Position numbers and translations under genes: made by a program. A stretch of 45,855 nt of DNA from a virus. The DNA is taken from the IMG/VR virus record IMGVR_UViG_3300014494_000003, one strand, 5' to 3'. Numbering within the stretch: position 1 is the first letter of the stretch; each line of letters opens with the position of its first letter. The notes below the pieces were generated by a model. The model was given only the letters and a program-made list of their open reading frames with translations. It was not told the origin of the DNA and did not search any database. Positions 1,132 to 22,736 of this stretch are shown here, in pieces.

Positions 1132-1944
1132 ATGAAACTGGAGGATCTGCGCCAGCTCGCGTACCTGGACCTGGACGAAGATCCGGCCAGCCCGAGGTAC
1201 TACACGGACGCCGAGGTCCGCGACGCGCTCAATGAGGCGGAGCGGTTCTTCTGCCTGCTGACGCTCTGCCTGGAGACGACCCGGCCTTTCGCGCTGACGC
1301 CTGGCGTGCGGTTCTACCCGCTGCTGCGCGAGTGGCACGACTGGATTGCGCCGCTGCGCGTGCGCTTGTCGAGCGACGTGGCGGAAGGGATCACCGCGCT
1401 CGACGACGGCGTCACCGCCGACACGGCCATGCCGAACGAGCAGGCGCATCCGGGCCTGGTCGCTTCAGCGACGCCAAAACTAGCCCCCTCGACCATGAGC
1501 GAGATGTGGGGTCTCAATTCCGACTGGCTGACCGCCACGGGCTACCCTGAGCGCTACGGATGTCTGGGCTTCGATCTGCTGTTTCTCGACAAGGTGGCGA
1601 CGTTGGGCGGCGTCAAGCTGCTGATCACCTACGCGCGGTCGCCGCGGCCGATGGTGCTGGACACCGACGCGCCCGAAATCCTCGAGGCCGACCATCACGC
1701 GCTGGTGGATGGCGCGGTCTCGCTGCTGCGGATGAAGGAAGGCGGCGACGAGCTGGCTGGCGCCATGGCCGGACTCGGCCGCTACCTACAGGTGGCCGCG
1801 AAGCGTGCGGCCCAGGTGCGGGGCCGCAGCCTGGCGCAACGCTACGACAAGCTCCCGCTGGAGCTGGAACGCTACGACTTCTCGCGGCTGCTCAAGATCC
1901 GGCCCGACCTGGCGCCGCATCGCAAGGGGGTTCCGAATGGTTGA
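1132..1944 (+). CDS. Hypothetical virion protein (adaptor or tail-associated by position)
   Basis: ATG preceded by gagggg. Third codon positions are G/C-rich. It lies between the tailspike and the large tail protein. The N-terminus (YYTDAEVRDALNEAERFF) resembles the N-termini of 1937..2551 and 43979..44839. Confidence 0.6.
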   Translation: MKLEDLRQLAYLDLDEDPASPRYYTDAEVRDALNEAERFFCLLTLCLETTRPFALTPGVRFYPLLREWHDWIAPLRVRLSSDVAEGITALDDGVTADTAMPNEQAHPGLVASATPKLAPSTMSEMWGLNSDWLTATGYPERYGCLGFDLLFLDKVATLGGVKLLITYARSPRPMVLDTDAPEILEADHHALVDGAVSLLRMKEGGDELAGAMAGLGRYLQVAAKRAAQVRGRSLAQRYDKLPLELERYDFSRLLKIRPDLAPHRKGVPNG

Positions 1945-2551
1945 CCTCAGCCTGTGGCTCCCTGCTCTGTGCGCCCGGCTCAACGCCGCCGGCGTGGCCG
2001 ACCTGGTCTTCTGGACCGAAGCGGAGCTGTACCAGCGCGCCACGGGGGCGCTGCACTCGCTGGCGCGGGAGAGCAATCTGTTCTGCGAAGCCTGCCCGCC
2101 GATCACGTCGGCTGAACCTTTGGTGCCGATCCCGGCTGAGCACCTGGCGCTGTTTCTGGTGGCGCGCGACGGAACCGTGCTGACTCCGGCCAGCGTGGCG
2201 GAACTCGAGGCTCTGGATTCCGACTGGGAAGAGACGGCCGTCTCCGGAGGCGGCAGCGTCACGCACTGGGTGGGCGACTACCTGGGGCTGCGCTTCCTGC
2301 GCTTCTACCCCATCCCGGCGACCTCCGCTGACGTGCTGCTGGTGCGCGCGTGTCTGCCCTCGATCCCCACCGCCAAGTCGGCGGGCGTGGCGATTCCCGC
2401 GCCCTTCGCCGACTACCTGGCGCTGGCGACGCTGCGGGACGCCAGGGCGAAGCAGGGCGACGCGCGGATGCCCGAGGTCGCGCAGCACATCGACCAACGC
2501 CTGAAGCTCTACGACCAGGTGGTGCAGGCGTATTGGGGGGGCGGGTACTGA
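1937..2551 (+). CDS. Hypothetical virion protein, 204 aa
   Basis: Internal ATG of listed ORF 1805..2551, overlapping the upstream stop by 8 nt. Its size and position just before an 828-aa protein recall the small/large tail-tubular pair of T7-like phages. This is inference only. Confidence 0.55.
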   Translation: MVDLSLWLPALCARLNAAGVADLVFWTEAELYQRATGALHSLARESNLFCEACPPITSAEPLVPIPAEHLALFLVARDGTVLTPASVAELEALDSDWEETAVSGGGSVTHWVGDYLGLRFLRFYPIPATSADVLLVRACLPSIPTAKSAGVAIPAPFADYLALATLRDARAKQGDARMPEVAQHIDQRLKLYDQVVQAYWGGGY

Positions 2552-5037
2552 TGCAGACCCAGAGCGAACAGCTTTTGGCGGGCAGCCTCAACCTGCTGCC
2601 TCCCGCCGACCAGATCCCCGACCAGGACGCCATCGCGCTCCAGAACTGGCGCGCCGACCAGGCCGGGGCGCTGCGCTCCCGCAAGGGGAGTGCCGCCGTG
2701 CTGTTCAGCGTGGCCGAGACCGTGCGCGCCATCTTCAAGGCGGCCGGCGCGACAGTGCGGCGCTACTACGCCGCGGGCTCGATGATGTACCGGAACTCGT
2801 CCGCGATCGCGGCGGGGCTGGAGCTGCACCCTCCCAGCATCGCCAGCATGAACGGCTGGGCCTGGATCATGAACCGGGGCCGGCAGATCAAAGACGACGG
2901 GACGCACACCTACGCCTGGACGCCGGCAGCTCCGGATGCCGCGCCGACTGACAGCACCGCAAGCGGCGGATTGCTTAACGGCGACGTGAGTTACTGGGTT
3001 ACCTGGGACACCGACGCGGAGCACGAATCGAACCCCTCGCCCGAGTTGGCGCTCACCGCCCTAGTGAATCAGAAGGTCACCATCACCCGGCCTTCGGCAG
3101 TGCCCGACGCGCAGGTTACCACCTGGAACCTGTACCGCATGGACGACGTACTGCCCGAACCGTACAAGGTGAATTCGGCGCCGATTCCGCTGGCGACGAC
3201 GACGTTCCTGGACGATGGGGCAACCGGCACGCTCTCCGCCGCCGACCTGGCGGGGCGCGGCGAGGTGTTGAGCTTCGACCACGATCCGGCGCCAATGGCG
3301 CGCGGCTGCTGCCAGTTCCAGAGCAAGATGCTGGCCTGGTCCACGGCGGAACATCCCAACCGGCTGTATTGGTCGATGACCGAGAAGCCCTGGTGTTTCC
3401 CCGGCTCGGCCGACGAAGAAGAGGGCAACTGGACGCCGGTAGGTGAAGAGGATGAGGAGTTAGTAACGGTCGCCGACTTCCCCAAGTTGGCCATCCTGCT
3501 CAAGGAGCGGTCCATTTACCGTATGGTGGGCGATCCCGACGAAAGCTGGTCTGAGATCGACCGCATCGCCCCCGACATCGGCCTGGTGGGTGAGAAGGCC
3601 TGGTGTCATGCCGGCGGGCGCGTTTACCTGCAAGGCGGCGAAGGCATCTACCGCGTCGACGGCGAGACCTGCGTCAAGGTCTCGCCCCAGCTCGACCCGA
3701 TCTTCAAGGGCGACGCGCTCTGGTTGGGCGCGCTGCCCGCGCTGCCCATCAACCCGGATCCGGTTATTCGGGCGCTTTCGTCGATGGAGTACATCAATGG
3801 GCGGGTGTATTACTCCTACGCCGACAGCTCGGCCACGCTGCCGAACACGACGCTGGTGTTCGACGAAGCCGGCAACCGCTGGTATTCGGATTCCCGCGCC
3901 TTCGACGCCCTCTACTACGAAGGCCAGGGCGGGCTGCTGCTGGGGGCCATCCGGGGCTCAGTCTTCCCGCTGGAGTCGGGGCTCACCGACAACGGCCTGG
4001 CCATCGACCTGGTCTACCAGTCGCGCTACTACAACCAGCAGGCGCCCAACAACGACAAGACCTACGTCGATCTGACCATCGAGCACAACACGGGCGGGCG
4101 CGTGCTCACCGTGCTGGCCTACCTCGACAACGGCAGCCGCGTCGTCAACCTGGGCACGATTTCGTCCTTGGTCCGCACGTCTACGCCGTTCCGCTTTAAT
4201 GAGGGCGACGGCGAGACGGCTCGGAACGTCTCGATCCGGCTCATCAGCAGCGGCACCGGCAGCATTGACGCCGAGATTTTCGGGATCGGTTTGCAGTATT
4301 ATGTGAACCCCCCTGACGGGCTGACCTGGGACTCCGGCAAGGTGACGCTAGACCCGCTCAAGGTGCAGCAGGTGGACTGCGTCGCCTTCGACGTGGAGGC
4401 GACGGCGGGCGCGGAGCTCGACTGGAAGGTCAGTACAGACCTCCCGGGCGACGAGCTGCAAGTGCGGGACAGTGGCAGCACCGGAGAGGACGGCACGGCC
4501 ACCATCCGGCGTTTCACGATGCCCCTGTTGGCGGTACGCGAGGCGCGCTGGCTGCGCGCGGTGCTGACCTCGGCGAAGCCCTTTCAGATTCGCGGCGCCT
4601 ACATCCACGCCCGCACGATTGGGGTCTACCTGGCCGGGACCCAGGACGTCTATCGCAGCGATCAGCTCACGCTCGGCACGGCGATGCTCAAGCTGTGGCG
4701 CGAGATGCGGGTGTACTGCGACACCGATGGCACGCTGACCGGGACGTTCCTCACGGATCTGCCCGCCGAGAGGATGGACGCGCGAGCCTCCGGCCCCCTC
4801 GACACCACGGTTACGACTCCGGGGGCGCGGTGGATGCGGTTGCGGTTCGACGGCTCGACGCGCGGCCGCGCGGGTGAGGTGCAGCTCCGCGCCAGCGCTC
4901 CCGCCCGGATCTACGCCCTGCAGGTGCGCGCCAAGGTGCTGGGGGCGGGCCTGACGGGCTGGCAGTGGGTGGACGTGCCCCTCGCGGAGACTTCGCCGGC
5001 GTTTCAATGGGTGGCGCTCGGGGGAGGCTCTCAGTGA
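2551..5037 (+). CDS. Large tail structural protein, 828 aa (possible nozzle / tail-tubular-B analogue)
   Basis: ATG 2551 overlaps the upstream TGA (ctgATG). The frame is long and clean with G/C-rich third positions. Assignment is by position in the tail module; no diagnostic motif was recognised. Confidence 0.6.
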   Translation: MQTQSEQLLAGSLNLLPPADQIPDQDAIALQNWRADQAGALRSRKGSAAVLFSVAETVRAIFKAAGATVRRYYAAGSMMYRNSSAIAAGLELHPPSIASMNGWAWIMNRGRQIKDDGTHTYAWTPAAPDAAPTDSTASGGLLNGDVSYWVTWDTDAEHESNPSPELALTALVNQKVTITRPSAVPDAQVTTWNLYRMDDVLPEPYKVNSAPIPLATTTFLDDGATGTLSAADLAGRGEVLSFDHDPAPMARGCCQFQSKMLAWSTAEHPNRLYWSMTEKPWCFPGSADEEEGNWTPVGEEDEELVTVADFPKLAILLKERSIYRMVGDPDESWSEIDRIAPDIGLVGEKAWCHAGGRVYLQGGEGIYRVDGETCVKVSPQLDPIFKGDALWLGALPALPINPDPVIRALSSMEYINGRVYYSYADSSATLPNTTLVFDEAGNRWYSDSRAFDALYYEGQGGLLLGAIRGSVFPLESGLTDNGLAIDLVYQSRYYNQQAPNNDKTYVDLTIEHNTGGRVLTVLAYLDNGSRVVNLGTISSLVRTSTPFRFNEGDGETARNVSIRLISSGTGSIDAEIFGIGLQYYVNPPDGLTWDSGKVTLDPLKVQQVDCVAFDVEATAGAELDWKVSTDLPGDELQVRDSGSTGEDGTATIRRFTMPLLAVREARWLRAVLTSAKPFQIRGAYIHARTIGVYLAGTQDVYRSDQLTLGTAMLKLWREMRVYCDTDGTLTGTFLTDLPAERMDARASGPLDTTVTTPGARWMRLRFDGSTRGRAGEVQLRASAPARIYALQVRAKVLGAGLTGWQWVDVPLAETSPAFQWVALGGGSQ

Positions 5038-6398: not shown

Positions 6399-6431
6399 GG
6401 GGGCTGTTGCCGATTGAAGGAAGAGGGGGAT

Positions 6432-6938
6432 ATGGGGATCACGGTCGCATCGCCGTTTCCGGCTTGGGCGCTGCCCCAAGTGTGGGCCTGGATCGAGTCG
6501 TTCCGAGACCGCGTGTGTGACGACTACGCCCCGAAGTCCCTGGATGAATTCCTGGCGGAGTGGGAACAACGGCAGCCACGGGAGCGGAGCTGGGCGGTCT
6601 ACGAAGAAGACGAGATCGGCGGCGTGATCGCCGTGCAGACCGTCAACCCGGATGCGGCGCTGTGCCGCTGCTACTTCAAGCGGGCGGCCTGGTCGACGGC
6701 GGTGGTCGTGCCGGCGCTGCGGGCGGTCTACGCCGAGGTATTCCAGGGCTCCACGGTCAAGATCAGCCTGCCGGTGTTCGAGGACAACTGGGATTTGCGG
6801 CGGCTGGCGCTGAACGCCGGCGCCGTCGAGGAGACGCCGAAGCATCGGCCTTTGCGCGACGCGACCAGGCGCGACGGGAAGTTGATCGGGGTTCGGATTC
6901 TATCGGTTTTCAAGGGGGTGAGCCATGGGGTTGCTTGA
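6432..6938 (+). CDS. GNAT-like acetyltransferase-fold protein (degenerate)
   Basis: ATG 6432 follows gaaggaagaggggga. The pattern WAVYEEDEIGGVIAVQ...ALRAVYAEVF...VKISLPVFEDNWDLRRLALNAGAVEE...RDGKLIGVRILSV matches the strand/helix layout of RimJ/L-type GNATs. The Q/RxxGxG/A loop is not obvious. Confidence 0.45.
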   Translation: MGITVASPFPAWALPQVWAWIESFRDRVCDDYAPKSLDEFLAEWEQRQPRERSWAVYEEDEIGGVIAVQTVNPDAALCRCYFKRAAWSTAVVVPALRAVYAEVFQGSTVKISLPVFEDNWDLRRLALNAGAVEETPKHRPLRDATRRDGKLIGVRILSVFKGVSHGVA

Positions 6939-7569
6939 CACGTTGGGTTCGATCGGGGGGGCGATAGCGGCTCCTTTCACGGGGGGTCTGAGCTCCCTCT
7001 TGATGCCCGCGCTGGGTGCGGTGGCCGGCGGGTTGAATAACCGCAGCACCTTGTCGGCCGGGCAGAAGGCGGTCTCCGGCTCGCTGGAGGACCAGCTCAA
7101 CTCGATCATGACCGACCCGAGCGCCGGGACGAATCCCATGCGCGTCGCCGGGCGGGCGCAGATCAATAGCCTGTACGCGGGCGCGCCGGACCAGATCGCG
7201 CGCCAGATGTACGCCCGCGGCTTCGGGGCCAGCGGCAAGGAGGGCAAGGCGGTGATTCAGTCCGACATGGCGCGGCGCGGCCAGATGTCGAACCTGGAAT
7301 CGCAGCTCGCCGAGTACGCCCTGCAACGCCAGCTCGCGGCGATGAAGATCGCGCAGGGGTACGTCGAAAGGCCGGTGGGCGGGAACGTCGCCGGCGGCGC
7401 GATCTCGGGGGGACTCCAGACTCTCATGGCGATGATGACGGCCAAGGGCGGGGCCGGCGGCGGGGGCGGCGGGCTGACGGTGAACAACCTGCCGACCTGG
7501 AACGGAAGCGCTGGGGGGCTGACGCCTTACCAGCTCTCCCCTGGCTACGGCGTGGACTACGGGGGGTAA
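6925..7569 (+). CDS. Gly-rich internal virion protein (candidate)
   Basis: ATG 6925 overlaps the upstream gene by 14 nt. The protein has Gly/Ala-rich hydrophobic ends and a G6 run. Assignment is by position ahead of the giant ORF. Confidence 0.5.
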   Translation: MGLLDTLGSIGGAIAAPFTGGLSSLLMPALGAVAGGLNNRSTLSAGQKAVSGSLEDQLNSIMTDPSAGTNPMRVAGRAQINSLYAGAPDQIARQMYARGFGASGKEGKAVIQSDMARRGQMSNLESQLAEYALQRQLAAMKIAQGYVERPVGGNVAGGAISGGLQTLMAMMTAKGGAGGGGGGLTVNNLPTWNGSAGGLTPYQLSPGYGVDYGG

Positions 7570-7575
7570 ACCAAC

Positions 7576-8823
7576 ATGCCAACGAACAACCCGATCATCG
7601 ACGGGATCATGGACGGGCTCCTGATCCGCGAGCACATGGCGAAGATGACGCAGGACCAGGGCGACTACGAACACCGCATGGCGGCGGACCAGCGCGCGCA
7701 GCAGGAGTTTGAGAACAACATCGTCCAGCAGCGATGGCAGCACCAGCACCAGCAGACTCAGGACCAGCTTCAGGACATCAACACGCGCCTGGCGCTGGGC
7801 ACGAACCCGGGCCTGATCCAGGTGCAGCCAGGCGAGGACACGCGCACGGTGCAGTTGCCGCTCGACGAGACGATGCAGAAGGCCTACGGCGGCATCCCTG
7901 CGCTTTCGATGAGCGTGCCGATCGACAACACCGTCGAGTATGGCGGCCGGCGCTACGCCATGCGCAGCGCGGAGGAACTCGAAGCCGACAAGATGCGCGA
8001 TCTGAACGCGACCAGCGCGCTGAAGCTGAAAGACACACTGGCGGCGAAGAGCCTGGAGCAACAGATGAACCAGGTGTATGTGCCGGGCATCGGCTACGTG
8101 GACAAGAGCGTCGCTCCGAGCTTCATCAACTCGGCGTCGCGGGAGAAGGAGGGCGCGGCGAACCGAACCAACGCCGTCACGGTCGCCAACATCCGCGGCT
8201 CGGCGACGCGCGACACAGCGGCGCGCCGCGACCAGTTGACCCCCAGCGGGGTCGAGTCTGTCCAATCCAACATCCGTAGGGATTTGGCCGCTCAAGAGCG
8301 GGCCGAAGCGCCGCTGGAGCAACTGCGCCAGCGGATCAAAGCCAAGGGGGATGGTAAAGCACTCAACTACACGACCTTCGATAGAGACGGCCTTCCGGCT
8401 ACTGTCAGTCTCACGTCAGAGGAGGCCACACAACGGCTCGGGGAAGTGGAGAACTCGCTGGCCGGGATTCGCAAGAAGAAGGCGCAGATCTACCAGCGCA
8501 TGCTGAACCACGGCTTCATCACTAGCGACGACTACGAGCGCATGGTCGGCGATTTGGGTCTGCCACCCGAACAGAAGACGCCCTCGCCGGCTCCCCAGTC
8601 GCACGCGCCCACAGCCGCTCCCACGCCGGCGCCGACGCCTGCGCCGAAACCGGCGGCAGCTCCGGCGGCCAATCGCCCCGCCAGCGCCGCCTCAACCGCG
8701 AGGCCGCCGCAGGCTGCGCTCGACGCCATTCCGCCCGGGCAGACGGCGACGTTCCGCAATGGCCAGGTGTGGACGAAGAACGCCGCTGGCCAGGTTACCC
8801 AGATCCAACCGCAGGCCCAGTGA
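7576..8823 (+). CDS. Gln-rich coiled-coil internal virion / ejection protein (candidate)
   Basis: ATG 7576. The protein has a QQ/HQ-rich helical N-terminal half and a Pro/Ala-rich tail. Its stop overlaps the start of the giant ORF. Confidence 0.5.
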   Translation: MPTNNPIIDGIMDGLLIREHMAKMTQDQGDYEHRMAADQRAQQEFENNIVQQRWQHQHQQTQDQLQDINTRLALGTNPGLIQVQPGEDTRTVQLPLDETMQKAYGGIPALSMSVPIDNTVEYGGRRYAMRSAEELEADKMRDLNATSALKLKDTLAAKSLEQQMNQVYVPGIGYVDKSVAPSFINSASREKEGAANRTNAVTVANIRGSATRDTAARRDQLTPSGVESVQSNIRRDLAAQERAEAPLEQLRQRIKAKGDGKALNYTTFDRDGLPATVSLTSEEATQRLGEVENSLAGIRKKKAQIYQRMLNHGFITSDDYERMVGDLGLPPEQKTPSPAPQSHAPTAAPTPAPTPAPKPAAAPAANRPASAASTARPPQAALDAIPPGQTATFRNGQVWTKNAAGQVTQIQPQAQ

Positions 8824-11800
8824 TGCCGAGCGAATGGGACATCGTCGATGTGTCGAAGCCGCCCGCCAAGCCCGACCCTTGGGCGGTCGTCGCGATCTCC
8901 CCATCCGCCACGCCGGCACCGCCCGCCGCTGACTCGAGCCCCAACGTCCCCGGTGCCGAGAAGACCGGCCTGCCCGGTCTGCCCGCCATGCCCGTCTCGG
9001 TGACCGAGGAGCCGACGCTCCTCGAGCGCATCGGCAACGTGTTCGGTAAGGGCGCGCAGAATGCTGCCGACTTTCTGCTGCAGAACGCCAAAATGGGCAT
9101 TGCGCCAGGCGCGCCCGTCGCTGCTGCGGCCCCTCCGCCGGGAATTACCGCGAAGCAGGCGACGCAGGCGGCCAAGACCTACGAGACCCCGATGCTCCCG
9201 GTCTCCGAGTTACTCCCCGAGAGTCCCAACGACGGGAACGTGACTAAGTTCGCCAGGGGGGCGCTCCAAGGGGCCGAGGGGCTGACCACTCCGGTCAACC
9301 TGGCGCTGATGGCGGCGCTCGGCGCGGCCGGAGCTACGGCCAGGGCGTCAGTTGAACCGGCAGTACAGCAAGGCTGGCATTTGGCCGACGCGGCGCTTTC
9401 CGCCTACTTCTCGGGCCAGGCCGCGCACGGATTGTATGGTGCCGGCAAGGATGCCGTGGAAGCGGTCGGCAAGGGCGACTGGGGCAAGGCCGCGACCGAC
9501 CTCGGTTTGGGCACGGTGGACGGTCTGATCGCCTACTTGGGAGCGCGCAATGCCTTCAAGAACGTGCAGGGCGCGGCGGAGATCGGCCGGACGCAGCGCA
9601 TTCTCCAGGAGAACCTGAACCGGCGGGAGGCCGCGCGGCGTGCGGCTGAACCCAAGCCTGCCACGGAGTCGATTCCGCCTGCTTCCGGCGCAGTTCCCAC
9701 CGCGACGCGGCTGCTGCCTCCTGGGGAAGCGCCCGAAGCCAAGCCGCCAGCGCCGCCGCCTGAACTGCCGGGAGGGAAGAAGCTGCTGGCCCCCGGAGAA
9801 GCGCCGCTGCCCGAACCGCCGCCTGAAGTGCCTGCCGGATGGCAGATCGTCAAGAGCGAGCCCGCGCCTGAAGTCGAGCCAGCGGCTCCTCGCTCGGGGA
9901 GCGCGTGGCCGCAGGGGATCGCGCCGCCCGTGGGCGTCGAGGTGTTCGACCGCGCGGCGGAGCTGGCCCGGAGCCGAGGCAGCATTTCGCCTATCGTGCT
10001 TCAGCGTGAGCTGGAGATTCCACAGCTCGAGGCTCAGGGACTCTTCCGCCGCCTCATTGGCCAGGGGGTCGTCGACCGGATTGGACGCATCCCCGCGCCG
10101 CCGGAGGATTCCGGACCGGCAGCGGCCCCGCCCCAGAGTGGAGCAGCCAAGGGCGCGCCCGCGATCCAGCCGAAGCCCGACTCAGTCGATTACTACGACC
10201 AGGCTGTCAGCCTGGCGCGCCAGAACGGCGCGATCAGCCGCACCGGTCTGCAGAACGCGTTCGGCCTGAACCGGGACGACGCGCAGTCGCTGCTCAGCCG
10301 GATGATCCAGGGCGTCAACGGCGAGCCGGGCGTGGTCTCGCCGAACGGTAGGTTGATCGCTCCGCAGAAACCCGCTGTTGCGCCGGGCGGCCAGCGGGAG
10401 CTGCCGCTTGTGGCGCAGGGACCGGCGCAGGCGAGCCCGGAGAGCCCGGTCGAGGCTCCTCCATCCCCCGAAGCTCCCCCGCTTCCGCCAGCGGCCCCGC
10501 AGCCGCCGCAAGCGACGCTCTACGACCGCGCCGTCGAGTTCGGCGCGAAGTACGGCAAGGTCAGCCAGGCCGGTCTGCGGCTGCACCTGGGCATTAGCGC
10601 CAGTCGCGCCGACTCGCTTCTGACGCAGTTGTCGCAAGCGGGAAAGATCGACCCGAACACCAAGAAGTGGATCGGCGGCAGGACCGCCCCCATCGGCAAG
10701 CCGGCTCCTCCGCAGATTCTCCCCATAGACAACCGCCCGCCCATGACCTCGGCCCAGCCGGGCGCGCCCGTGACTCCGCTCCCGGCGCCGGCGCCCGCGC
10801 CCGCGGGCGATTTCGAGGGCGCGGCCGACGATCTTCCGCCCGAGCGGGTGGGCCGCACGGAAGAGGTCAGCACGCCCGAGGGGACGAAGGCGCAGGCGCA
10901 ATGGCGGGTCGTCGATCTCGCCCACGACAACCTGCTCACGTCGCACAGTTACGCCGGGGTGGAGAACCCGGAGTATCCGCAGGAGTATCAGAACCGCGAC
11001 CGCTCGCGCATCGCCAGCGAGACGCAGATCCGCGGCATCGCCGCCAACCCGGTTGCCAAGCGGCTCAGCCAAAACTACCTGACGAGCGAGGGCGCGCCGA
11101 TCTACGCCAACCGCGACGGCCGGCGGACGGTCATCTCCGGAAACGGGCGGACGGAAGCGATCAAGCTGGCCTACAAGCAAGGCACCGCCGCGGGCTACCG
11201 CGCGGGCCTGCCCGAGGAGCTGACCGCCGCCGGGATCGATCCGAAGGTGCTCGAAGGAATACAGCAGCCGATGCTGTCCAGGGCGCTGGTCGGCAAGATG
11301 CCGCTCGGCCGCATCGCCCGGGAATCCAACGCGCCCAGCGTCGCCGAGCGCAGCCCGGTCGAGCTGGCGCGGGCGGATGCCAAGCGCCTCACCGGCGCGC
11401 TGATGGAAGCCTTCAAGCCAGGCGAGGACGGGCGGATCGTCACCACCGAAAACTGGCCCTTCATTCAAACCTTCTTCCGCGAGCTGCTCACCGCCGCGGA
11501 GCGGGGGAAGTACACGCTCGGCAACGGCGGCATCAACCAGGCCGGCATCGCGCGCATTCGCAACGCGGTTTTCGCCAAAGCCTACGGGGAGTCGGCCGCG
11601 CTCGAAAACGTGGCCGAGGATCCCGACGACAATGTGCGCAGCATCACCGCCGCCATGCTGCGCGCGGCTCCGTCGTTTGCGCGCGTGGGGGAAGGCGTCG
11701 CCGCGGGCACGCTCCACGATCTCAACATCGCGCCCGACGTTGCCGCCGCCGCCGGCAAACTGTCGAGCCTCCGCGCGCAGGGCACCACGGTCGAGGACTA

Positions 11801-14800
11801 CCTGAACCAGGAGGAGCTGTTCGCGCCCGAACTGTCCCCGCTGGGCCGCGAGATGCTTCGCGTCTTCGGCGTCCACAGCCGCAGCTCCGCCCGGCTGGCG
11901 GAGATTCTGACTAACTACGCCAGCGCCGTCGAGGCGCTCGGCAGCCCTCAGCAAGCCAGCTTGCTGGGTGATACAATTCCGACCAGGGCCGAAGTTCTCG
12001 AGGCGGCAGTCGAGGCCACCGAGGCGAGAGCCAAGCTCCTGGCTGAGCAGCGAAAGGCCAAGAAAGATGTACAGTCCCAAGCACGTAACGACGCGGCCGG
12101 CAGTGGTGGCGAAGTTGGTGACGTTGATGGACAAGGTCCATCAGGGCCAGACCGCGCAGCAGATCCGGCAGGAGTTCGAGCAGGAGCAGAAGCTCCGCCA
12201 GTTCAATCCGCCCCCCGGCAGCAAGCCCCAGTAGCGCCGTCGCCCCGACCTCTAGAACCGCAGCAACCGCCCGCGGCTACGACTGCGGCCTGGCGAGCGG
12301 GTGCTTCGGCGTTGCCTATCGACGTTCAGGAGATTCGTGATTGGTTGCGGGACAACGAAGGGACCGGGAAGCCTGCGACCGTTGAGTACGCGAGGCAGTA
12401 CCTGGCTGGGGCGGACTCTCAGGCCCGGCCGATGCCGCAAGCCGAACCGGCGGCGCAGCCGAAGGCGGAGGCATCCGCACCTGCCCCGCGCTTGCCCCAC
12501 GAGCTCGCCAGTGCGAAGCCGAACTATGCCTTCGGAGCGAAGGAGTTCGCCCTCGATTTCGAGAGCGACATCGACAAAGCGGCTTTCATCGCCGCGCAGT
12601 TTAAGCCATCGAAGGCCGATGCGCAGTACGTTGGCTTCGTTCGCCAGGCGACGGGGCTGTCGACGCAAGCGGTTCGATCCGCCGGTGTGCGCGTGCGCTC
12701 GGCCATCAAGGAGTTGGCGCGTGACGCAGAACCGGGAGTGCTGCGCGTGCCGGACGTCTTGGGGCGGCGCCTGAAGCCACCAGGGGGCGAGACATTCTTC
12801 GCCCCGAAGTTGAAGGATGCCCGCGGCGCGCGAAGCCCGCAAGAGTACTTCGCCGCGGCCGACTCCCGATACGAGGCGTTGCTGCGGGATCGACCTGGCC
12901 ATATTTACGTGAACGCCCCGGCCCACGGGTTAATTGTGAGCGCGCTGCGCCACGCGGGCCTTCCCGCGCAGAACTTCGCCGGCCTCACGCTGGGACCGGC
13001 GGATGCCAACTTGCTGTACCGCGCCCTCGGGGAGTTTGAACAGACCGAGCAGGAGCCCGGCGTCCGCGCCGCGATTGGTCAGATGCGCGCGGCCATGCGC
13101 CAGGCGGCTGGCGAGAGCAAGACTCTGACTTTCGTAAGGAGCGGCCCCGACGTCTCCGCCATGGAACGGCGGACCGCGCGGCGGGAGGAGGAATTCCATC
13201 GGCAACAAATTCTGCGCACGCGCGGGAAGGTGCTCGAAGGTCATGTCGACTCACAGCGCCTCAGTCAAAACCAAACGGTTCACAAAGGCCTGAGGGCCAT
13301 AGAGCGTGACCGCCACGAGACCGGGCAGCGCGCTTATGTGGAACTGGCTGCGAGCTTGGCCAGCGGGCAGTGGGGAGATCTCGGGCTGACGCGAGAGGAG
13401 GCCATCGATGCGCTCCACGCTTACATCGGCGAGATCGTCCGGCTCCACGGAGACCAGGCAGGAGGTATTATCAACCATGTCCACCCAGCAATCCGAAACG
13501 CTGTCCAGGAACGACTGGCGGCATCCGGACAACCTGCAACAGTGGCTGCGCGAACGCTACGGCGACGGCCAGGTCACGACGCCGGGCCAGGTAGCGGCGG
13601 ACAATTTTACCGACCTCTTCGAGGCGTACCGGAGGGGCGGCCAGAAGACCTTCCGAGCCAAGTTCGATCAGATCTTTCCGCCCGAACAGCACCCGTAGAA
13701 CACGCCGGGCCCGGAACTCTGGACCTATTCGGAGAAGAGGCCAACCAAACCAGCCGCGAAGCCGCCAAGAGCGATGCCGCCAAACTCGAAGCCGACCGGC
13801 TCACCGCCGAGTTCGGCAGCGCGCTGAATCGCAATAACCTCCGCAAGAAACTGAAGCCCGGCGAAAAGCCGCAACAGGGCGACCTGTTTGGAGGGATGCC
13901 GGAGAAACCCGCGCAGGGCAAGCTACTGTTTCAGAAGGGCGGGACTGGTCCGCACGGTCCGATCTTCACCGAGTTCCGGCATGACGCCGCCGGCGCGATC
14001 GCCAAGCTGCGCCAGGCGCAGAGCGGCGAAGCCGTGGCGGCGCTGCACCATCCCGCGGTCGGGGACATTGATCTGATTTGGGGCGAGAGCGGCACTAGTC
14101 CGGGAAACGGCTACGGACTGGCAAAGCTGGCGAAATGGCATCCGGAAATCCTGGACAACCTGCAGGAGACGCTGGACACGATGACCGCTGCGGCGCGCAA
14201 CGAGAACACGGTTCAATTGGACAGCGCGACGCACCACGCTGTCGTCCGCAGAAATTGGAAAGGGAACCCTAAGACTTGGCTGCTAACGGCCTTCGAAAAG
14301 AAGCAGCCGTCACTAGCCGGAAGGACGATGGACATTTCCGGCACGCGAGAGGCGCGGCGGGATGACACAGCTCCCCCGCCGAGTGGCGGCACTTCCAGTA
14401 TGGCCCCAACCGGAGAGGGCGGCAAGCGGGAAAAGACCTCAGATTTCTGGAAAGACGAGAGCGGCGAATTCGACCTGGCGAACCTGCGGGCAGGGCTGCG
14501 CGAGAAGTTCGGCGAAGCGGCGAACCAGGCCAACTACACCGGTCTGGGAGCCAAGGACATATTCCTACGCAACTTGTCGCAATTGGAGAAAACTAGCTCC
14601 GCGGGCCACGCCGCAGCGGTCCGTGCGGCCGCCAGCAAGGGACAAGTGGCAGCACTGCTGCGCGCCGCCGTTCCGCGCATCGAGGCGGCCATTGGCAAGC
14701 GCGGGCCGACGTGGACCGAGTTCAGAACGGCGTTGATCGAAAGCCGGCTGCGGGGGATCCGCGAGCGGTGGCGCGCCATGGCCGAGCAGGCTCTCGACAT

Positions 14801-16943
14801 GAGCCCGGCGCAGATGCAGGCCAGCTTCGACAATGGCGTGCTGACGCTGCTGGAGAACATCCAGGACAAGCGAGGCCTCGGGCAAGACTTGGCCGAAACC
14901 GCCGCCGCGATGTTCCAGTCCGCGCAGGAGGGCGACCTGGCGCAGAAGAAACCCGGAGAGCCCGCCTACCCCGTGCTGAGCGAGGGCCCCCACCTGCGGG
15001 CGCTGCGAGACTTTCTCTCGACCACTTACCTCGACGCGGCCGAGTCGGTGGCCGAAGTCTTGCCGGATGAGTTCTTCCATCGTATTACCAGCAGCCCTGG
15101 ATTTGCGCGCGGCCTCGAAGCGTACCGCGAACTGCTCGAGAAGCCGATGGCCGACAATCACGCCCTGAACGAGGGCGTGTTCAGCGATGCTCTGGGCCCG
15201 GTGGGAGCCTACTATCCGCTGGTGCCGGTCACGAGCGCCGAGGCGGCGCAGGCGAAAGCCCCGGGAACGACCTCAGGCTACCGCAAGCCGCGCAACATCT
15301 CCAATGATTTCGCCACGGGCCTCGCGCTCCGGTACGACGCGGGAATGGAGGCGCTGCGCAACCGCTTGACGCGAGCGATCAAAGCTAACAACAAAGCTGC
15401 GCTGATCCAGACGCTGGAAGACGAAGGGCTGCTGCGGAAGATGCGGCCGAACGAAGTAGCGGGGGACGTCATCAACATCGGCGGCGAGGATTTCAAGGCC
15501 GACTACATCAAATCCGAAGGCGTATTGGTTCCGACCTGGCTCCGAAAGGAGCTGGTTCCGATTCTGGAACTCGAAGGCCGGCCGCACCAGCTGGTTCAAT
15601 ATGTCAACCAGGTGATGCAGGTGTTGAACAAACTCTCTCTAGTGGGGCCGCTCAATCTCGTTTACCATGCCACGAACCTGCTGGGGACTTTGACCTTCAA
15701 CACACCTTTCATCCCCGGGTCTGTCCTGGGGGAGAAGGTTGGCAACTCGCCGTTAACAAAACAGTTCTACGCCCTGGTGCGCATCCTTCACACCGACCCC
15801 ACAACCGCGGACGCGGTTGCAGACATGACCGAGATGGCCAAGGTGGGCGCCTTGCCCGACCGCTTCGGCTCGGAGACCTTCTCCCAGCGGTTCGCCGAGC
15901 AACTCGGCGCCGAAGACAAGATGTGGAGGTTCGAAGTGGGCGGTAGGAATCTGGCCCTCCCGAAGAGCGCGGGTCCGATCCTCTTCGGCCCCAAGGGCAT
16001 GGACATTCGGGCGCGCCTGCTGATGTGGCGGATCGCGAAACAACTCCAGCCGCAGGGGAACCCGCAAAGCTGGGCTAGGTCCACGAATCAACTCGGCGTC
16101 TACGTGCGTGGGATGCAGAGCGACATAGAACGCGCGCTGAAGGCGAGCGGTTTCTCTCCGTTCTTCACCGCCGGTTCCACGATGGTGCGCAACGGGATCA
16201 ACGGCTTTCTGGGACGTGGCCCGATCACGAGCGACAAGTTCAGTTATCGACTAAAACAACTACTGACGGGGGGGGCCCCTGCGCTCATCGCCATCTGGGC
16301 TCTGATCAACAAGGCGTACCGGGGCAAGTGGCCCTGGGAAGAGCCAAATTCGAAACTCTTGGCGTTCGCCGTGAAGCCGGCCGACCGCAATTCCGCACTG
16401 GGCCGGGCGCTGTGGGGCTCGAAGCCGGGCACGGCCTACGTGAATCTGGCCTTCATCAATCCGTTGCTGGCGCGCGGCCTGCGCGCACTGGGCATCATGG
16501 ACGCCTACGAGACGCGGCAGCTCGGCGGGTCGTTCGATCAGATCACGAAAGCCGCAGTAAAGGGATCGGCGAATGCGTTTATCGGGCCGGCCGCCGGCCC
16601 TCTGGTGCGGACCGGCATGATCGCCGCGACGGGCCGCGAGCCGTATCTGACGGACGTGCAGGATGTGACCTTCATGCGAGCGGCGGCGAAAAAGCCGGGA
16701 TTCCTACGCAGTCGCGTCGAGTATGGCAAAGAGGCCGCGCTCAGCCTCAATAATTTCTTTGGCAACCTGGCCACGGCTACTGGGATCGGGTACGAAGCGG
16801 AGCGCGCAGCGAAGACCGGTAACGCTGCGTTGCGGATGCTCACCGATCTGGCTGCACCCCGCCTGGTGGGAACGGTTTCGGATCAGTCGGCCAAAGCGAG
16901 ACGGCTGGCCAACGAGCGCCGGGCAGCGGCGCGGGAGCGGTGA
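8823..16943 (+). CDS. Giant polyvalent virion protein, 2,706 aa: 3x FtsK-gamma-like wHTH, a ParB/Srx-like module, a small nuclease-like module and a hydrophobic C-terminal third
   Basis: ATG 8823 overlaps the upstream TGA. There is no frame-0 stop for 8.1 kb. Recognisable modules are separated by Pro/Ala-rich linkers (see findings). The position is equivalent to the ejected core proteins of podoviruses. Confidence 0.7.
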   Translation: MPSEWDIVDVSKPPAKPDPWAVVAISPSATPAPPAADSSPNVPGAEKTGLPGLPAMPVSVTEEPTLLERIGNVFGKGAQNAADFLLQNAKMGIAPGAPVAAAAPPPGITAKQATQAAKTYETPMLPVSELLPESPNDGNVTKFARGALQGAEGLTTPVNLALMAALGAAGATARASVEPAVQQGWHLADAALSAYFSGQAAHGLYGAGKDAVEAVGKGDWGKAATDLGLGTVDGLIAYLGARNAFKNVQGAAEIGRTQRILQENLNRREAARRAAEPKPATESIPPASGAVPTATRLLPPGEAPEAKPPAPPPELPGGKKLLAPGEAPLPEPPPEVPAGWQIVKSEPAPEVEPAAPRSGSAWPQGIAPPVGVEVFDRAAELARSRGSISPIVLQRELEIPQLEAQGLFRRLIGQGVVDRIGRIPAPPEDSGPAAAPPQSGAAKGAPAIQPKPDSVDYYDQAVSLARQNGAISRTGLQNAFGLNRDDAQSLLSRMIQGVNGEPGVVSPNGRLIAPQKPAVAPGGQRELPLVAQGPAQASPESPVEAPPSPEAPPLPPAAPQPPQATLYDRAVEFGAKYGKVSQAGLRLHLGISASRADSLLTQLSQAGKIDPNTKKWIGGRTAPIGKPAPPQILPIDNRPPMTSAQPGAPVTPLPAPAPAPAGDFEGAADDLPPERVGRTEEVSTPEGTKAQAQWRVVDLAHDNLLTSHSYAGVENPEYPQEYQNRDRSRIASETQIRGIAANPVAKRLSQNYLTSEGAPIYANRDGRRTVISGNGRTEAIKLAYKQGTAAGYRAGLPEELTAAGIDPKVLEGIQQPMLSRALVGKMPLGRIARESNAPSVAERSPVELARADAKRLTGALMEAFKPGEDGRIVTTENWPFIQTFFRELLTAAERGKYTLGNGGINQAGIARIRNAVFAKAYGESAALENVAEDPDDNVRSITAAMLRAAPSFARVGEGVAAGTLHDLNIAPDVAAAAGKLSSLRAQGTTVEDYLNQEELFAPELSPLGREMLRVFGVHSRSSARLAEILTNYASAVEALGSPQQASLLGDTIPTRAEVLEAAVEATEARAKLLAEQRKAKKDVQSQARNDAAGSGGEVGDVDGQGPSGPDRAADPAGVRAGAEAPPVQSAPRQQAPVAPSPRPLEPQQPPAATTAAWRAGASALPIDVQEIRDWLRDNEGTGKPATVEYARQYLAGADSQARPMPQAEPAAQPKAEASAPAPRLPHELASAKPNYAFGAKEFALDFESDIDKAAFIAAQFKPSKADAQYVGFVRQATGLSTQAVRSAGVRVRSAIKELARDAEPGVLRVPDVLGRRLKPPGGETFFAPKLKDARGARSPQEYFAAADSRYEALLRDRPGHIYVNAPAHGLIVSALRHAGLPAQNFAGLTLGPADANLLYRALGEFEQTEQEPGVRAAIGQMRAAMRQAAGESKTLTFVRSGPDVSAMERRTARREEEFHRQQILRTRGKVLEGHVDSQRLSQNQTVHKGLRAIERDRHETGQRAYVELAASLASGQWGDLGLTREEAIDALHAYIGEIVRLHGDQAGGIINHVHPAIRNAVQERLAASGQPATVAARTLRRRPGHDAGPGSGGQFYRPLRGVPEGRPEDLPSQVRSDLSARTAPVEHAGPGTLDLFGEEANQTSREAAKSDAAKLEADRLTAEFGSALNRNNLRKKLKPGEKPQQGDLFGGMPEKPAQGKLLFQKGGTGPHGPIFTEFRHDAAGAIAKLRQAQSGEAVAALHHPAVGDIDLIWGESGTSPGNGYGLAKLAKWHPEILDNLQETLDTMTAAARNENTVQLDSATHHAVVRRNWKGNPKTWLLTAFEKKQPSLAGRTMDISGTREARRDDTAPPPSGGTSSMAPTGEGGKREKTSDFWKDESGEFDLANLRAGLREKFGEAANQANYTGLGAKDIFLRNLSQLEKTSSAGHAAAVRAAASKGQVAALLRAAVPRIEAAIGKRGPTWTEFRTALIESRLRGIRERWRAMAEQALDMSPAQMQASFDNGVLTLLENIQDKRGLGQDLAETAAAMFQSAQEGDLAQKKPGEPAYPVLSEGPHLRALRDFLSTTYLDAAESVAEVLPDEFFHRITSSPGFARGLEAYRELLEKPMADNHALNEGVFSDALGPVGAYYPLVPVTSAEAAQAKAPGTTSGYRKPRNISNDFATGLALRYDAGMEALRNRLTRAIKANNKAALIQTLEDEGLLRKMRPNEVAGDVINIGGEDFKADYIKSEGVLVPTWLRKELVPILELEGRPHQLVQYVNQVMQVLNKLSLVGPLNLVYHATNLLGTLTFNTPFIPGSVLGEKVGNSPLTKQFYALVRILHTDPTTADAVADMTEMAKVGALPDRFGSETFSQRFAEQLGAEDKMWRFEVGGRNLALPKSAGPILFGPKGMDIRARLLMWRIAKQLQPQGNPQSWARSTNQLGVYVRGMQSDIERALKASGFSPFFTAGSTMVRNGINGFLGRGPITSDKFSYRLKQLLTGGAPALIAIWALINKAYRGKWPWEEPNSKLLAFAVKPADRNSALGRALWGSKPGTAYVNLAFINPLLARGLRALGIMDAYETRQLGGSFDQITKAAVKGSANAFIGPAAGPLVRTGMIAATGREPYLTDVQDVTFMRAAAKKPGFLRSRVEYGKEAALSLNNFFGNLATATGIGYEAERAAKTGNAALRMLTDLAAPRLVGTVSDQSAKARRLANERRAAARER
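12067..12234 (+). CDS. Nested +1-frame small ORF, 55 aa, inside a linker of the giant ORF
   Basis: ATG preceded by gaaagg..agaaag, ending in TAG. By hand count, 50 of 55 codons end in G/C in this frame, against about 20 of 56 in the giant frame over the same span. Confidence 0.4.
   Translation: MYSPKHVTTRPAVVAKLVTLMDKVHQGQTAQQIRQEFEQEQKLRQFNPPPGSKPQ
13477..13698 (+). CDS. Nested +1-frame small ORF, 73 aa, inside a second linker of the giant ORF
   Basis: AGGAGG at 13460..13465, then an AT-rich spacer gtattatcaacc, then ATG; it ends in TAG. By hand count, 61 of 73 codons end in G/C here, against 32 of 74 in the giant frame. Confidence 0.45.
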   Translation: MSTQQSETLSRNDWRHPDNLQQWLRERYGDGQVTTPGQVAADNFTDLFEAYRRGGQKTFRAKFDQIFPPEQHP

Positions 16944-21709: not shown

Positions 21710-21912
21710 TGAATCCGGAAGCGGCGGGGTTTCATCTGATGGTGGCGGCGCTGAATGCCGTCGACGAGCTGCTCGAGATTCCCCGGCTGCCGGCGAGTCC
21801 ACGGTATGCGGATCTTCCCGCTGACGAGCGGGCGATGCGCGAGGCGTGGGACGAAGAGACCCGGCGGCTGGAATCGCAGGCCCGCCTCAATGCGGCCGGG
21901 GGGTGGCTATGA
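21706..21912 (+). CDS. Hypothetical protein, 68 aa
   Basis: ATG 21706 is in an ATGA overlap with the micro-ORF. Confidence 0.45.
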   Translation: MMNPEAAGFHLMVAALNAVDELLEIPRLPASPRYADLPADERAMREAWDEETRRLESQARLNAAGGWL

Positions 21913-22736
21913 GCACGGTGCTGGAGTTCAGGAAGGGGGCGGCGACGGCCGCCCCCTCCGAGCAATTGGGCCTGGCCGACGTGCTTTCTCCATCCCAGGT
22001 GGCCACGTTCCTTGCCTGCCCTGCCAAGTGGTGTTTTAAGTATCTCCTGGATCTGAAGGAACCGAAAACCAGCAGCCTGGCGGTCGGCCTGGCTGTGCAT
22101 GCGCCCATCACGCAGGCCCTGGAGTGGAAGCGGTTGAACGGCATGGATGTCGAGGCCGGCGCCGTCGATGAGCTGTTCGAGCAGGCCTGGGCCGAGGAGA
22201 CGGACCAGACGGAGTTTCGCGACGATGAGGAGCCGGGCCAGCTCCACGACCAGGCGCGGGCGATGGTGCGGAAGTACATGACGGAGGCGGCGCCCTACCT
22301 CAAGCCCGCGGCGGTCGAGCTGCCGATCGCGGGCGAGATCGGCGGCGTGCGGATCCGCGGGCGGCTCGACATCCTGGAGGAGGATGGCTGCGTCACCGAG
22401 ATCAAGACGGCCGCTCGAAACCCGGGCGACGAGATGACGACCGATCACCGGGCGCAGCTCGCCACCTATTGCCTGCTCTGCCCGAAGGCCTCGGGCAAGG
22501 CGCGGCGGGATACGATCACGAAAACCAAGGTGGTGCAGATTGTCCCGCAGCCGATTGAGATCGGGCCGGCGGACGTGGCCTACCTGGAGGCGATCTATCC
22601 GCAGGCGCAGGAGGCGATGCGGGACGGCGTCTTCTACCCCCGCCGCGATTCGACGATGTGCAGCCGGAAGTACTGCGCGTTCTGGCGCGACTGCGAGAAC
22701 GAGTACGGCGGCGTGGTGAAAGGCGGTGGACGATGA
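21909..22736 (+). CDS. PD-(D/E)XK nuclease, Cas4/RecB-like, with a Cys cluster
   Basis: The start is in an ATGA overlap. GRLDILEEDGCVTEIKT provides the D...ExK motif. An N-terminal Cys (FLACPAKWCF) plus the C-terminal CSRKYCAFWRDC fit an Fe-S cluster pattern. Confidence 0.8.
   Translation: MSTVLEFRKGAATAAPSEQLGLADVLSPSQVATFLACPAKWCFKYLLDLKEPKTSSLAVGLAVHAPITQALEWKRLNGMDVEAGAVDELFEQAWAEETDQTEFRDDEEPGQLHDQARAMVRKYMTEAAPYLKPAAVELPIAGEIGGVRIRGRLDILEEDGCVTEIKTAARNPGDEMTTDHRAQLATYCLLCPKASGKARRDTITKTKVVQIVPQPIEIGPADVAYLEAIYPQAQEAMRDGVFYPRRDSTMCSRKYCAFWRDCENEYGGVVKGGGR

Follow-up and report, generated by a model that had tools for sequence, protein, structure and literature searches.

What are three tandem repeats that resemble the gamma domain of FtsK doing inside a giant phage protein? 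The repeats had been noticed in a preliminary description of a viral DNA stretch of 45,855 nucleotides (hereafter the window), which took them for winged-helix modules of the FtsK/SpoIIIE gamma type and proposed that they bind phage or host DNA in a sequence-directed way. The phage genome is complete and circularly assembled (45.7 kb), and the giant open reading frame (ORF) holding the repeats lies in the late (virion) operon of a tailed phage, with genes for an SU10-type adaptor, an internal-virion-protein-like protein, the large terminase, a portal-like protein and the capsid as neighbors, all on the plus strand. The label 'structural protein' that its product had been given is an inference from this gene context. 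Separately, a reading of the 123-nt identical ends of the window as physical terminal repeats was ruled out: the contig was assembled as a MEGAHIT k141 circle, with a gene running across the junction.

The giant ORF can be read from a GTG at 8769, but its real start is probably the ATG at 8823, which is favored because it forms a TGATG overlap with the upstream stop and matches the public gene call of 2706 aa. All residue numbers below take GTG 8769 as the first codon, so 18 must be subtracted to obtain those for a start at ATG 8823. The features of the gene are listed here.

8769..16943, plus strand: giant ORF, 2724 codons from GTG 8769 (ORF list, translation, GC3 0.78)
9048..9569, plus strand: N-terminal conserved module, aa 94–267 (BLASTP, 38% identity to aa 209–377 of relative P0002)
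9936..10091, plus strand: winged-helix module 1, aa 390–441 (Pfam FtsK_gamma 18.4 bits alone; AF2 pLDDT about 93)
10092..10184, plus strand: linker 1, Pro/Ala-rich, 31 aa, 29% Pro (composition; pLDDT <50, predicted disordered)
10185..10361, plus strand: winged-helix module 2, aa 473–531 (Pfam FtsK_gamma 12.5 bits alone; AF2 pLDDT about 91)
10362..10505, plus strand: linker 2, Pro-rich, about 50 aa, 33% Pro (composition; pLDDT <50, predicted disordered)
10506..10676, plus strand: winged-helix module 3, aa 580–636 (Pfam FtsK_gamma 21.4 bits alone; AF2 pLDDT about 94)
10878..12023, plus strand: DdrB-like ParB/Srx domain, aa 704–838, with a conserved C-terminal extension to about aa 1085
14046..14306, plus strand: PBECR1 domain (predicted barnase/EndoU/colicin-like RNase), aa 1760–1846 (Pfam PF18809)
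14457..16934, plus strand: C-terminal module of ~820 aa, aa 1897–2722, mostly alpha-helical (BLASTP to relatives)

The presence of three repeats of ~55 aa in this ORF was confirmed. The three peptides quoted in the preliminary description are exact in the ORF frame (aa 390–435, 473–523 and 582–627, corresponding to nt 9936–10073, 10185–10337 and 10512–10649), and the start it gave, 9935, is off by one base relative to that frame. Pairwise local BLOSUM62 scores among the modules were 74, 54 and 73, compared with shuffle means of about 20 (z = 12.7, 9.3 and 12.5), and 0 of 2000 shuffles matched the observed score. Over the aligned stretch the modules are mutually 24–39% identical, and no similarity among them was found at the DNA level, which indicates that the duplication is old. 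The spacers are indeed Pro-rich by composition, with 29% Pro over 31 aa in the first and 33% over 52 aa in the second.

The assignment to the FtsK-gamma winged-helix family held up in HMM, profile–profile and structural comparisons. Pfam FtsK_gamma (PF09397) scored 42.4 bits over three stretches within aa 368–657 and 31.8 bits on the whole protein, above the cut-off of 30.6. Each module taken singly falls below that cut-off, and a public precomputed FtsK_gamma match on the giant protein is flagged 'faint'. A profile built from seven modules found FtsK gamma structures as its best matches in the PDB (2j5p, 2j5o and 2ve8; E 9e-10 to 7e-8), and hhalign of the modules against 40 true gamma domains gave a probability of 99.3% (E 3.8e-20). 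With an 18-module core profile (A3), all 120 listed of 291 matches were PF09397, in short FtsK fragments. AF2 predicted an H1-b-H2-H3-wing arrangement with pLDDT >90 in every module: H1 390–403, H2 408–415 and H3 419–431 in module 1; H1 475–486, H2 491–498 and H3 502–514 in module 2, with a 5-residue insertion ahead of the wing; and H1 581–595, H2 600–607 and H3 611–623 in module 3, the wing following directly in modules 1 and 3. Foldseek aligned the modules to 2ve8, 2ve9, 2j5o and 2j5p with a probability of 1.00, TM 0.6–0.78 and rmsd 0.7–2.8 Å; the accompanying E-values are weak (0.1–0.7) because the domain is only ~50 aa long. Against viral models, Foldseek returned generic small HTH proteins only. 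Thus aa 390–636 are three diverged FtsK-gamma-type winged helices. In the AF2 model of the triplet the linkers are disordered and no packing between modules is predicted, given a pTM of 0.30, so that the modules are modeled as independently folding beads strung on long, disordered Pro-rich linkers. Module 1 might instead belong to a GemA-like domain as its winged helix, given the GemA N-motif that lies just upstream in relatives, but Pfam detects no GemA signal in module 1 itself.

The modules share with FtsK/SpoIIIE gamma the winged-helix fold, a similar length (~55 aa) and charge, and a detectable sequence homology. Their net charge ranges from 0 to +5 (E. coli gamma, +2); module 3 is the most basic (+5), module 1 is also basic, and module 2 has no net positive charge. 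Unlike FtsK gamma, they occur three to a chain on long Pro-rich linkers, not far from the N-terminus in a phage protein of 2.7 kaa, and they come without the alpha/beta motor, Pfam finding no FtsK_SpoIIIE or FtsK_alpha domain on the giant protein. The residues by which gamma recognizes its partners differ as well. E. coli FtsK gamma reads KOPS through R1300, E1303 and E1306 (PMC2680272) and contacts XerD through R1289, R1292 and N1296 (PMC5052618). In the HMM alignment, the three KOPS-reading positions are G/R/I in module 1, S/S/I in module 2 and S/T/S in module 3; no module retains R1292 or N1296, and only module 1 retains Q1288 and R1289. The near-invariant gamma signature (K-AS, QR, IGYNRAA, ME-EG) is largely lost. 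With the KOPS and XerD residues mostly replaced, the modules presumably do not read KOPS, and any specificity would differ from that of FtsK.

The phage's own DNA offered no obvious target either. Among 7–10-mers in the 45.7-kb genome, none was over-represented or strand-skewed under a maximal-order Markov model (best z 4.6, 6 copies), which leaves the proposed phage-DNA target without a motif. Canonical KOPS, GGGNAGGG, occurs twice on the plus and five times on the minus strand; KOPS, SRS and the L. lactis motif are all at background level, and long direct or inverted repeats form chance-level families only. Sequence-specific DNA binding by the array is a conjecture.

The rest of the protein places the array in a recognizable setting. 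The product is a phage-type polyvalent protein, in which effector domains are strung along one polypeptide. Pfam identifies ddrB-ParB, FtsK_gamma and PBECR1 in it; NCBIfam finds nothing. At least four further conserved modules are shared piecemeal with other giant proteins. The counterpart of the N-terminal module in P0002 lies upstream of that protein's single gamma module (aa 442–507). The DdrB-ParB domain (Pfam PF18763, E 1.1e-21; PHROG 5143/2299) lies 3' of the array, separated from it by a 70-aa Pro-rich linker, and by BLASTP its region is about 60–70% identical to that of P0001. PBECR1 scores 26.4 bits for PF18809, marginally below the cut-off of 27.6, and its region is 51% identical to the same region in P0011 and P0053, which pass or carry PF18809. 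The C-terminal module is 30–36% identical by BLASTP to the C-terminal regions of P0002, P0003 and P0004 and 26% identical to P0009. Other giant proteins also have it at or close to their C-terminus, and some of these carry a lytic transglycosylase domain (PF01464 in P0002 and P0004). An AF2 model of this module (835 aa, 5 sequences) was poor, with pLDDT 51. No Pfam peptidase family was found in the giant protein at E<=10, and HExxH/HExxxH motifs of a zincin metallopeptidase are absent.

FtsK wHTH domains in phage and plasmid polyvalent proteins were published in 2017 (Iyer et al., 2017; PMC5512222), so the array extends that observation and adds no new category. In that account, polyvalent proteins are predicted to accompany the DNA on delivery, and FtsK wHTH is one of the dsDNA-binding domains that they rarely carry; the main text describes it as infrequent and does not state its copy number. 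Our protein resembles those described there in being a giant multi-domain product of a late operon with a DdrB-ParB hub, PBECR1 and a wHTH accessory, and differs in having three tandem wHTH modules and in lacking the metallopeptidase, which is the commonest though not an obligatory hub. Related systems include DdrB of phage P1, which is a processed head-internal protein, and the Dar system head proteins. P1 DdrB has a DdrB-like ParB domain in common with the giant protein (tblastn, about 30% identity over 350 aa); the match is confined to the ParB region and does not include the winged-helix array. P1 DdrB also has a C-terminal metallopeptidase (PMC5512222), absent from the giant protein here.

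The repeats are not confined to this protein. Relatives carry modules at the same N-proximal position: two in P0001, one each in P0002 and P0017, and three each in P0053 and P0054, so that the count is 1–3, possibly 4. Module 1 has its nearest counterparts in P0001_a and P0053_2, module 2 pairs with the first module of P0001 in BLASTP, and module 3 is 46% identical to module 3 of P0053; this variable number was produced by separate duplications. To P0001 the modules are 32–35% identical, well below the figure for the neighboring ParB region. The gene order GNAT-x-x-giant recurs on the contigs of P0002 and P0017. Only 3 of 47 recovered DdrB-ParB giant proteins have the modules, indicating that the array is dispensable for the DdrB-ParB domain. 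More distant searches yielded little: none of 50,697 GenBank phages matched the triplet region in tblastn, and aa 368–1110 found one related contig (L001 = L002) across IMG/VR, JGI metagenomes and GTDB, with no match in GTDB genomes. A homologue search with a linker-containing alignment (A2) returned nothing, probably because Pro-rich words swamped the candidates.

We think it reasonably likely that the array is a flexible device for tethering effector domains to double-stranded DNA. The three modules would bind dsDNA and hold on it chiefly the DdrB-ParB domain just downstream, and also the PBECR1 nuclease-like domain. By analogy with engineered covalent FtsK gamma trimers, three weak binders on one chain may provide avidity. 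The position of the gene and the relatives that carry a lytic transglycosylase (PF01464 in P0002, P0004 and P0010) suggest that the giant protein is packaged in the virion and delivered with the DNA. The incoming phage genome would be its most probable target. Several observations count against a tether: the signature residues are lost, module 2 has no net positive charge, the phage genome yields no motif, the modules are found in so few DdrB-ParB giants, and the protein lacks a zincin peptidase (HExxH) that could set its domains free.

A more specific possibility is that the array acts as a single-chain KOPS-like reader whose modules dock head to tail on one short asymmetric site of 7–12 bp. 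This would anchor the array sequence-specifically, and possibly in one orientation, at phage ends or at polar motifs in the host chromosome. Three modules is the number of gamma domains on one KOPS (PMC3384302), and covalent 3-gamma binds 1:1 and far above the monomer (PMC3384302, PMC5052618). P0053 and P0054, which are distant relatives, also reached three, via different duplications, and three gamma domains are also found in small natural proteins. However, conservation does not extend to the base-reading residues, the linkers are far longer than those of engineered 3-gamma, and no inter-module packing is predicted. Copy number in relatives varies (1, 2, 3 and 3–4), with two the commonest (121 of the 150 top database matches), and no repeated or skewed motif was seen in the phage genome. 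We consider such a reader unlikely. Its boldest form, a natural single-chain '3-gamma' in which diverged modules jointly read one asymmetric DNA word (a phage or host polar motif), strikes us as quite improbable. If it were true, the injected ParB-like NTPase/nuclease and RNase would be positioned or oriented at defined DNA sites, and the count of three would have been selected, as it was reached independently in at least three giant-protein lineages by different duplications.

Two other readings dispense with DNA. The modules could mimic the XerD-contacting gamma surface and engage a tyrosine recombinase, of the host or the phage, or some other host protein. The H2–H3 surface of FtsK gamma serves both KOPS and XerD, and a 9-residue stretch of it is enough to activate recombination (PMC5052618); 3-gamma activates XerCD/dif (PMC3384302); module 1 retains the Q1288/R1289 equivalents; and in P0017 a tyrosine integrase is encoded two genes downstream of the giant gene. 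Against this, modules 2 and 3 lack R1289 and none of the three modules has the other two XerD contacts, no integrase or Xer-like gene turned up in the scanned ORFs of the window, and the XerD interaction is species-specific, which makes a mimic very improbable in our judgment. We give least credence to the view that the modules are inert or decaying, as relics or folded spacers of a mosaic protein that have lost ligand binding. Their lost functional residues, their faster evolution than the ParB region, their varying copy number and their absence from most DdrB-ParB giants would all fit. Yet all three modules keep their hydrophobic core pattern and a confidently predicted fold, and two of them are still basic; the same position is kept in P0002, P0053 and P0054, relatives with little else in common; and the modules have been repeatedly duplicated, not lost.

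If the array binds DNA, the tether we favor would show how a phage-delivered multi-effector protein stays on DNA. It would also be a natural counterpart of engineered 3-gamma (Nolivos et al., 2012; PMC3384302), in which the covalent linkage was made to tighten binding to a short DNA motif and was needed to measure KOPS binding at all. One KOPS is bound by three gamma domains, and the engineered chains bind a 7–8-bp motif 1:1 and better than monomers do (PMC3384302). Both consist of three gamma-type winged helices with flexible linkers on one polypeptide; the engineered protein has identical modules on 14–16-aa Gly-rich linkers, whereas here the modules are diverged and the linkers are Pro-rich, of 31 and about 50 aa.

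Several gamma domains on one chain are no rarity. Since polyvalent proteins were already known to contain the domain and tandem copies are frequent, the array is a solid but fairly ordinary case. Arrays of two or three gamma modules are widespread; small proteins, plasmid FtsK homologues and phages commonly have gamma-type winged helices in tandem, which are essentially unstudied, and this wider point may be of more use than the single case here. Natural proteins of ~200 aa with three PF09397 domains include P0049, P0050 and P0057, and P0061 and P0067 are FtsK translocases with two to three. Phage-borne gamma modules occur in gp60 of Rhodobacter phage RcKemmy and in the gamma-bearing small terminase of Bacillus phages Sam46 and Sam112 (PMC8190038). 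Like the array here, these proteins depart from the one-per-FtsK arrangement in having tandem or phage-borne gamma domains; unlike it, none lies inside a polyvalent protein, and they are nearer to canonical gamma (110–250 bits in Pfam), with the signature residues kept.

The giant protein of this phage (plus-strand ORF 8769-16943; residues counted from GTG 8769) carries three modules, at aa 390-441, 473-531 and 580-636, that are very probably diverged winged helices of the FtsK-gamma family within a polyvalent protein. The peptides quoted in the preliminary description all occur verbatim in the frame of this ORF, at aa 390-435, 473-523 and 582-627 (nucleotides 9936-10073, 10185-10337 and 10512-10649), although the starting coordinate given there, 9935, is one base out of frame. 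The modules are alike, as had been proposed, with local BLOSUM62 scores of 74, 54 and 73 against shuffle means of about 20 (z = 12.7, 9.3 and 12.5), and 0 of 2000 shuffles reached the observed scores. No similarity among the three was seen at the DNA level, indicating that the duplication is ancient. The spacers, of 31 and about 50 residues, are indeed proline-rich (29-33% proline).

The most probable start codon is ATG 8823, which in TGATG (8821-8825) overlaps the TGA stop of the upstream ORF 7576-8823, and the gene is probably translationally coupled to this neighbor. Starting there takes 18 codons off the mechanical ORF and gives a 2706-aa product, the same as the gene call in the public assembly (ENA ERZ27247323 k141_2258840). 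We kept the numbering from GTG 8769; subtracting 18 gives positions in the real protein.

The proposed kinship to FtsK gamma was borne out by profile comparisons. Pfam FtsK_gamma (PF09397) matched the array in three stretches with 42.4 bits (gathering score 30.6; E 5.7e-11) and was the sole family above its own cut-off in this region. Scored singly, the modules reached 18.4, 12.5 and 21.4 bits, each under threshold, so the Pfam call depends on the summed score. A profile of seven modules (these three and four from relatives) searched against the whole PDB retrieved the solved FtsK gamma structures, led by 2j5p (E 8.9e-10) and followed by 5dcf, 2ius, 2j5o and 2ve8, with the next family weaker by four orders of magnitude. 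Built from 18 modules, all of them from giant phage-type proteins, a second profile had 291 matches among 5.8 billion proteins; all 120 matches listed carry PF09397, and the named ones are annotated FtsK/SpoIIIE. Aligned by hhalign to 40 true gamma domains from its matches, this profile gave 99.3% probability (E 3.8e-20, 58 columns).

AlphaFold2 modeled aa 375-645 with pLDDT above 90 in every module, each folding as helix, short strand, helix, helix and beta wing. Linker pLDDT below 50 and a pTM of 0.30 indicate that the model depicts three independent modules threaded like beads on a flexible chain. Single modules matched FtsK gamma of P. aeruginosa and E. coli (2ve8, 2ve9, 2j5o, 2j5p) in Foldseek with probability 1.00, TM 0.6-0.78, rmsd 0.7-2.8 Å and 25-31% identity; the small size of the domain, about 50 residues, alone accounts for the weak E-values. 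Sequence and structure thus agree that the fold and family were correctly assigned. The next-best match was to winged helices in chromatin-binding regions of the eukaryotic HORMA protein Hop1 (9mug, 9myp; profile E 1.6e-4; Foldseek with the model, probability 1.00, 23-35% identity).

The window represents a complete genome of 45,732 bp, assembled as a circle, and its ends (1-123 and 45733-45855) are 100% identical over 123 nt. This repeat comes from overlap in the assembly; we rejected a physical terminal repeat, because a 674-aa plus-strand ORF (GC3 0.90) spans the junction and the contig of origin, of 45,873 bp, is a MEGAHIT k141 circle. The late genes include:

Late genes of the phage
31212-32996, plus strand, large terminase
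34147-36441, plus strand, portal-like gene
40435-41364, plus strand, capsid
1132-1944, plus strand, SU10-type adaptor
2350-5037, plus strand, internal-virion-protein-like gene, ahead of the giant gene

A putative replication region encodes a 445-aa protein (25233-26570) with a DnaA N-terminal domain (PF11638, E 1.2e-9), and a PD-(D/E)XK nuclease lies at 21846-22736 (E 1.1e-26).

Besides the array, the giant protein contains:

Other regions of the giant protein
aa 94-267, 1183-1331 and 1346-1733, conserved blocks common piecemeal to other giant proteins
aa 704-838, DdrB-like ParB domain (E 1.1e-21; about 30% identity with phage P1 DdrB), with a conserved extension to about 1085
aa 1760-1846, PBECR1 domain (26.4 bits, cut-off 27.6; 51% identity with PF18809-carrying relatives)
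aa 1897-2722 (window 14457-16934), helical module of about 820 aa, C-terminal or nearly so in several giant proteins

No metallopeptidase was found in it. This architecture is that of the phage-type polyvalent proteins, named by Iyer et al., 2017 and predicted to be packaged and delivered with DNA (PMC5512222). The mostly helical C-terminal module may serve in virion incorporation or ejection; its AlphaFold2 model (pLDDT 51) was too poor for a fold search. It recurs at 26-36% identity in the otherwise different giants P0002, P0003, P0004 and P0009, and some giants with it also have a lytic transglycosylase.

Among GenBank phages, matches were confined to the ParB region of the giant protein, and the triplet region had none; IMG/VR and JGI metagenomes held one related contig (46,110 bp) and GTDB genomes none, so the phage is rare. 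The repeats are conserved in the homologues examined, in varying number:

Giant proteins with gamma-like modules
P0001, from the related contig, 2062 aa, two modules, 60% identity over aa 475-1119, GemA-like motif ahead of the modules
P0002, 4726 aa, one canonical module, methylase/helicase, SLT
P0017, 2288 aa, one module, DdrB-ParB
P0053, 1843 aa, three modules, from an exhaustive HMMER search
P0054, 2386 aa, three modules, DdrB-ParB, PBECR1
P0065, 2202 aa, two modules
P0160, 2184 aa, three to four modules

By pairwise scores, module 1 has counterparts in the first module of P0001 and the second of P0053, and module 3 in the third of P0053 (46% identity) and the second of P0001; module 2 lies between these types. 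In P0053 the first and second modules are mutually closest, as are all three in P0054. Different lineages thus acquired their arrays through separate duplications. Among the 47 giants of DdrB-ParB type recovered first, just 3 carry any module, which makes the array an optional accessory. The window and the P0002 and P0017 contigs have the same gene order, a small GNAT-like acetyltransferase gene, two ORFs and then the giant gene, which suggests a tail or ejection module common to these phages; the GNAT-like gene and the two function-unknown ORFs occupy 6414-8823 of the window, 6235-9997 of contig L003 and 7385-9606 of contig L004. A phage Mu GemA-like motif (PF06252, cut-off 27) adjoins the modules in P0001 (aa 350-400, about 9800-9950 of contig L001; 22.8 bits) and P0053 (aa 437-490; 29.3 bits); the window's giant protein has none. 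Because the P0001 match continues into the first winged helix of that protein, a related winged helix may be part of GemA itself.

In E. coli FtsK, recognition-helix residues R1300, E1303 and E1306 are required for KOPS recognition (PMC2680272), and Q1288, R1289, R1292 and N1296 contact XerD through a surface overlapping the DNA-contacting one (PMC5052618). Mapped through the seven-module profile alignment, these positions read:

FtsK functional positions in the modules
Module 1, R1300/E1303/E1306 replaced by G/R/I; Q1288 and R1289 kept, R1292 and N1296 replaced
Module 2, replaced by S/S/I; Q1288 kept, R1289, R1292 and N1296 replaced
Module 3, replaced by S/T/S; Q1288, R1289, R1292 and N1296 all replaced

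Of the signature near-invariant in true gamma domains (K-AS, QR, IGYNRAA, ME-EG), there remain the hydrophobic core, the YD-A opening helix 1 and one alanine in helix 3. Neither KOPS reading nor XerD activation can be assumed of these modules. Net charges of +1, 0 and +5 are comparable with E. coli gamma (+2), which keeps DNA binding plausible. It is very unlikely that the modules mimic the XerD-contact surface and bind protein, and inert relics are a highly improbable reading.

One KOPS is bound by three gamma domains, and gamma in isolation binds DNA poorly; engineered single-chain proteins of three gammas with 14-16-aa linkers bind a 7-8-bp motif 1:1, detectably better than the monomer, and also activate XerCD (PMC3384302; PMC5052618). 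The most economical reading by analogy is that three modules would bind double-stranded DNA with avidity and serve as a tether for the polyvalent protein, keeping its DdrB-ParB domain, 70 residues downstream of the array, and its PBECR1 domain, farther off, at the DNA while delivery proceeds or afterwards. On balance we expect the modules to bind double-stranded DNA as such a tether; this binding, the packaging of the protein in virions and the nature of its target are all inferences. A specific reader of a composite site, its modules forming a compact KOPS-like complex, is unlikely: the linkers are long and proline-rich, AlphaFold2 predicts no inter-module packing, copy number differs between relatives, the base-reading residues are gone and the phage genome lacks an enriched or skewed candidate word. 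It is quite unlikely that the array is a natural single-chain three-gamma protein that reads an asymmetric DNA word and owes its three copies to convergent selection.

Covalent gamma multiplets are not unusual. Re-scanning the best 150 module-profile matches among 1.84 billion representatives, a ranking that favors multi-copy proteins, found two modules in 121 and three in 15. P0049, P0050 and P0057 are proteins of about 200 aa made of three canonical gamma domains (Pfam, 158-254 bits), P0061 and P0067 are FtsK/SpoIIIE translocases with two or three, and plasmid FtsK homologues also have tandem gamma-like modules. This kind of array is already known: Iyer et al. described FtsK wHTH domains of polyvalent proteins in 2017 (PMC5512222), and multi-gamma architectures are common in sequence databases. 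Added here are a well-documented, confidently modeled triple array, evidence for the repeated origin of arrays in giant phage proteins, and the finding that FtsK functional residues are not kept in the modules. Bacillus phages have a small terminase with a fused gamma domain, and the study describing it remarks that the roles of solo phage gamma genes are unknown (PMC8190038). Tandem gamma-like modules also form the N-terminus of gp60 of Rhodobacter phage RcKemmy, annotated as hypothetical. This 444-aa protein of a cultured phage (MW677517.1, L005 3031-4365) adjoins an AAA-ATPase and matched a three-gamma query with 89% coverage and 33% identity.
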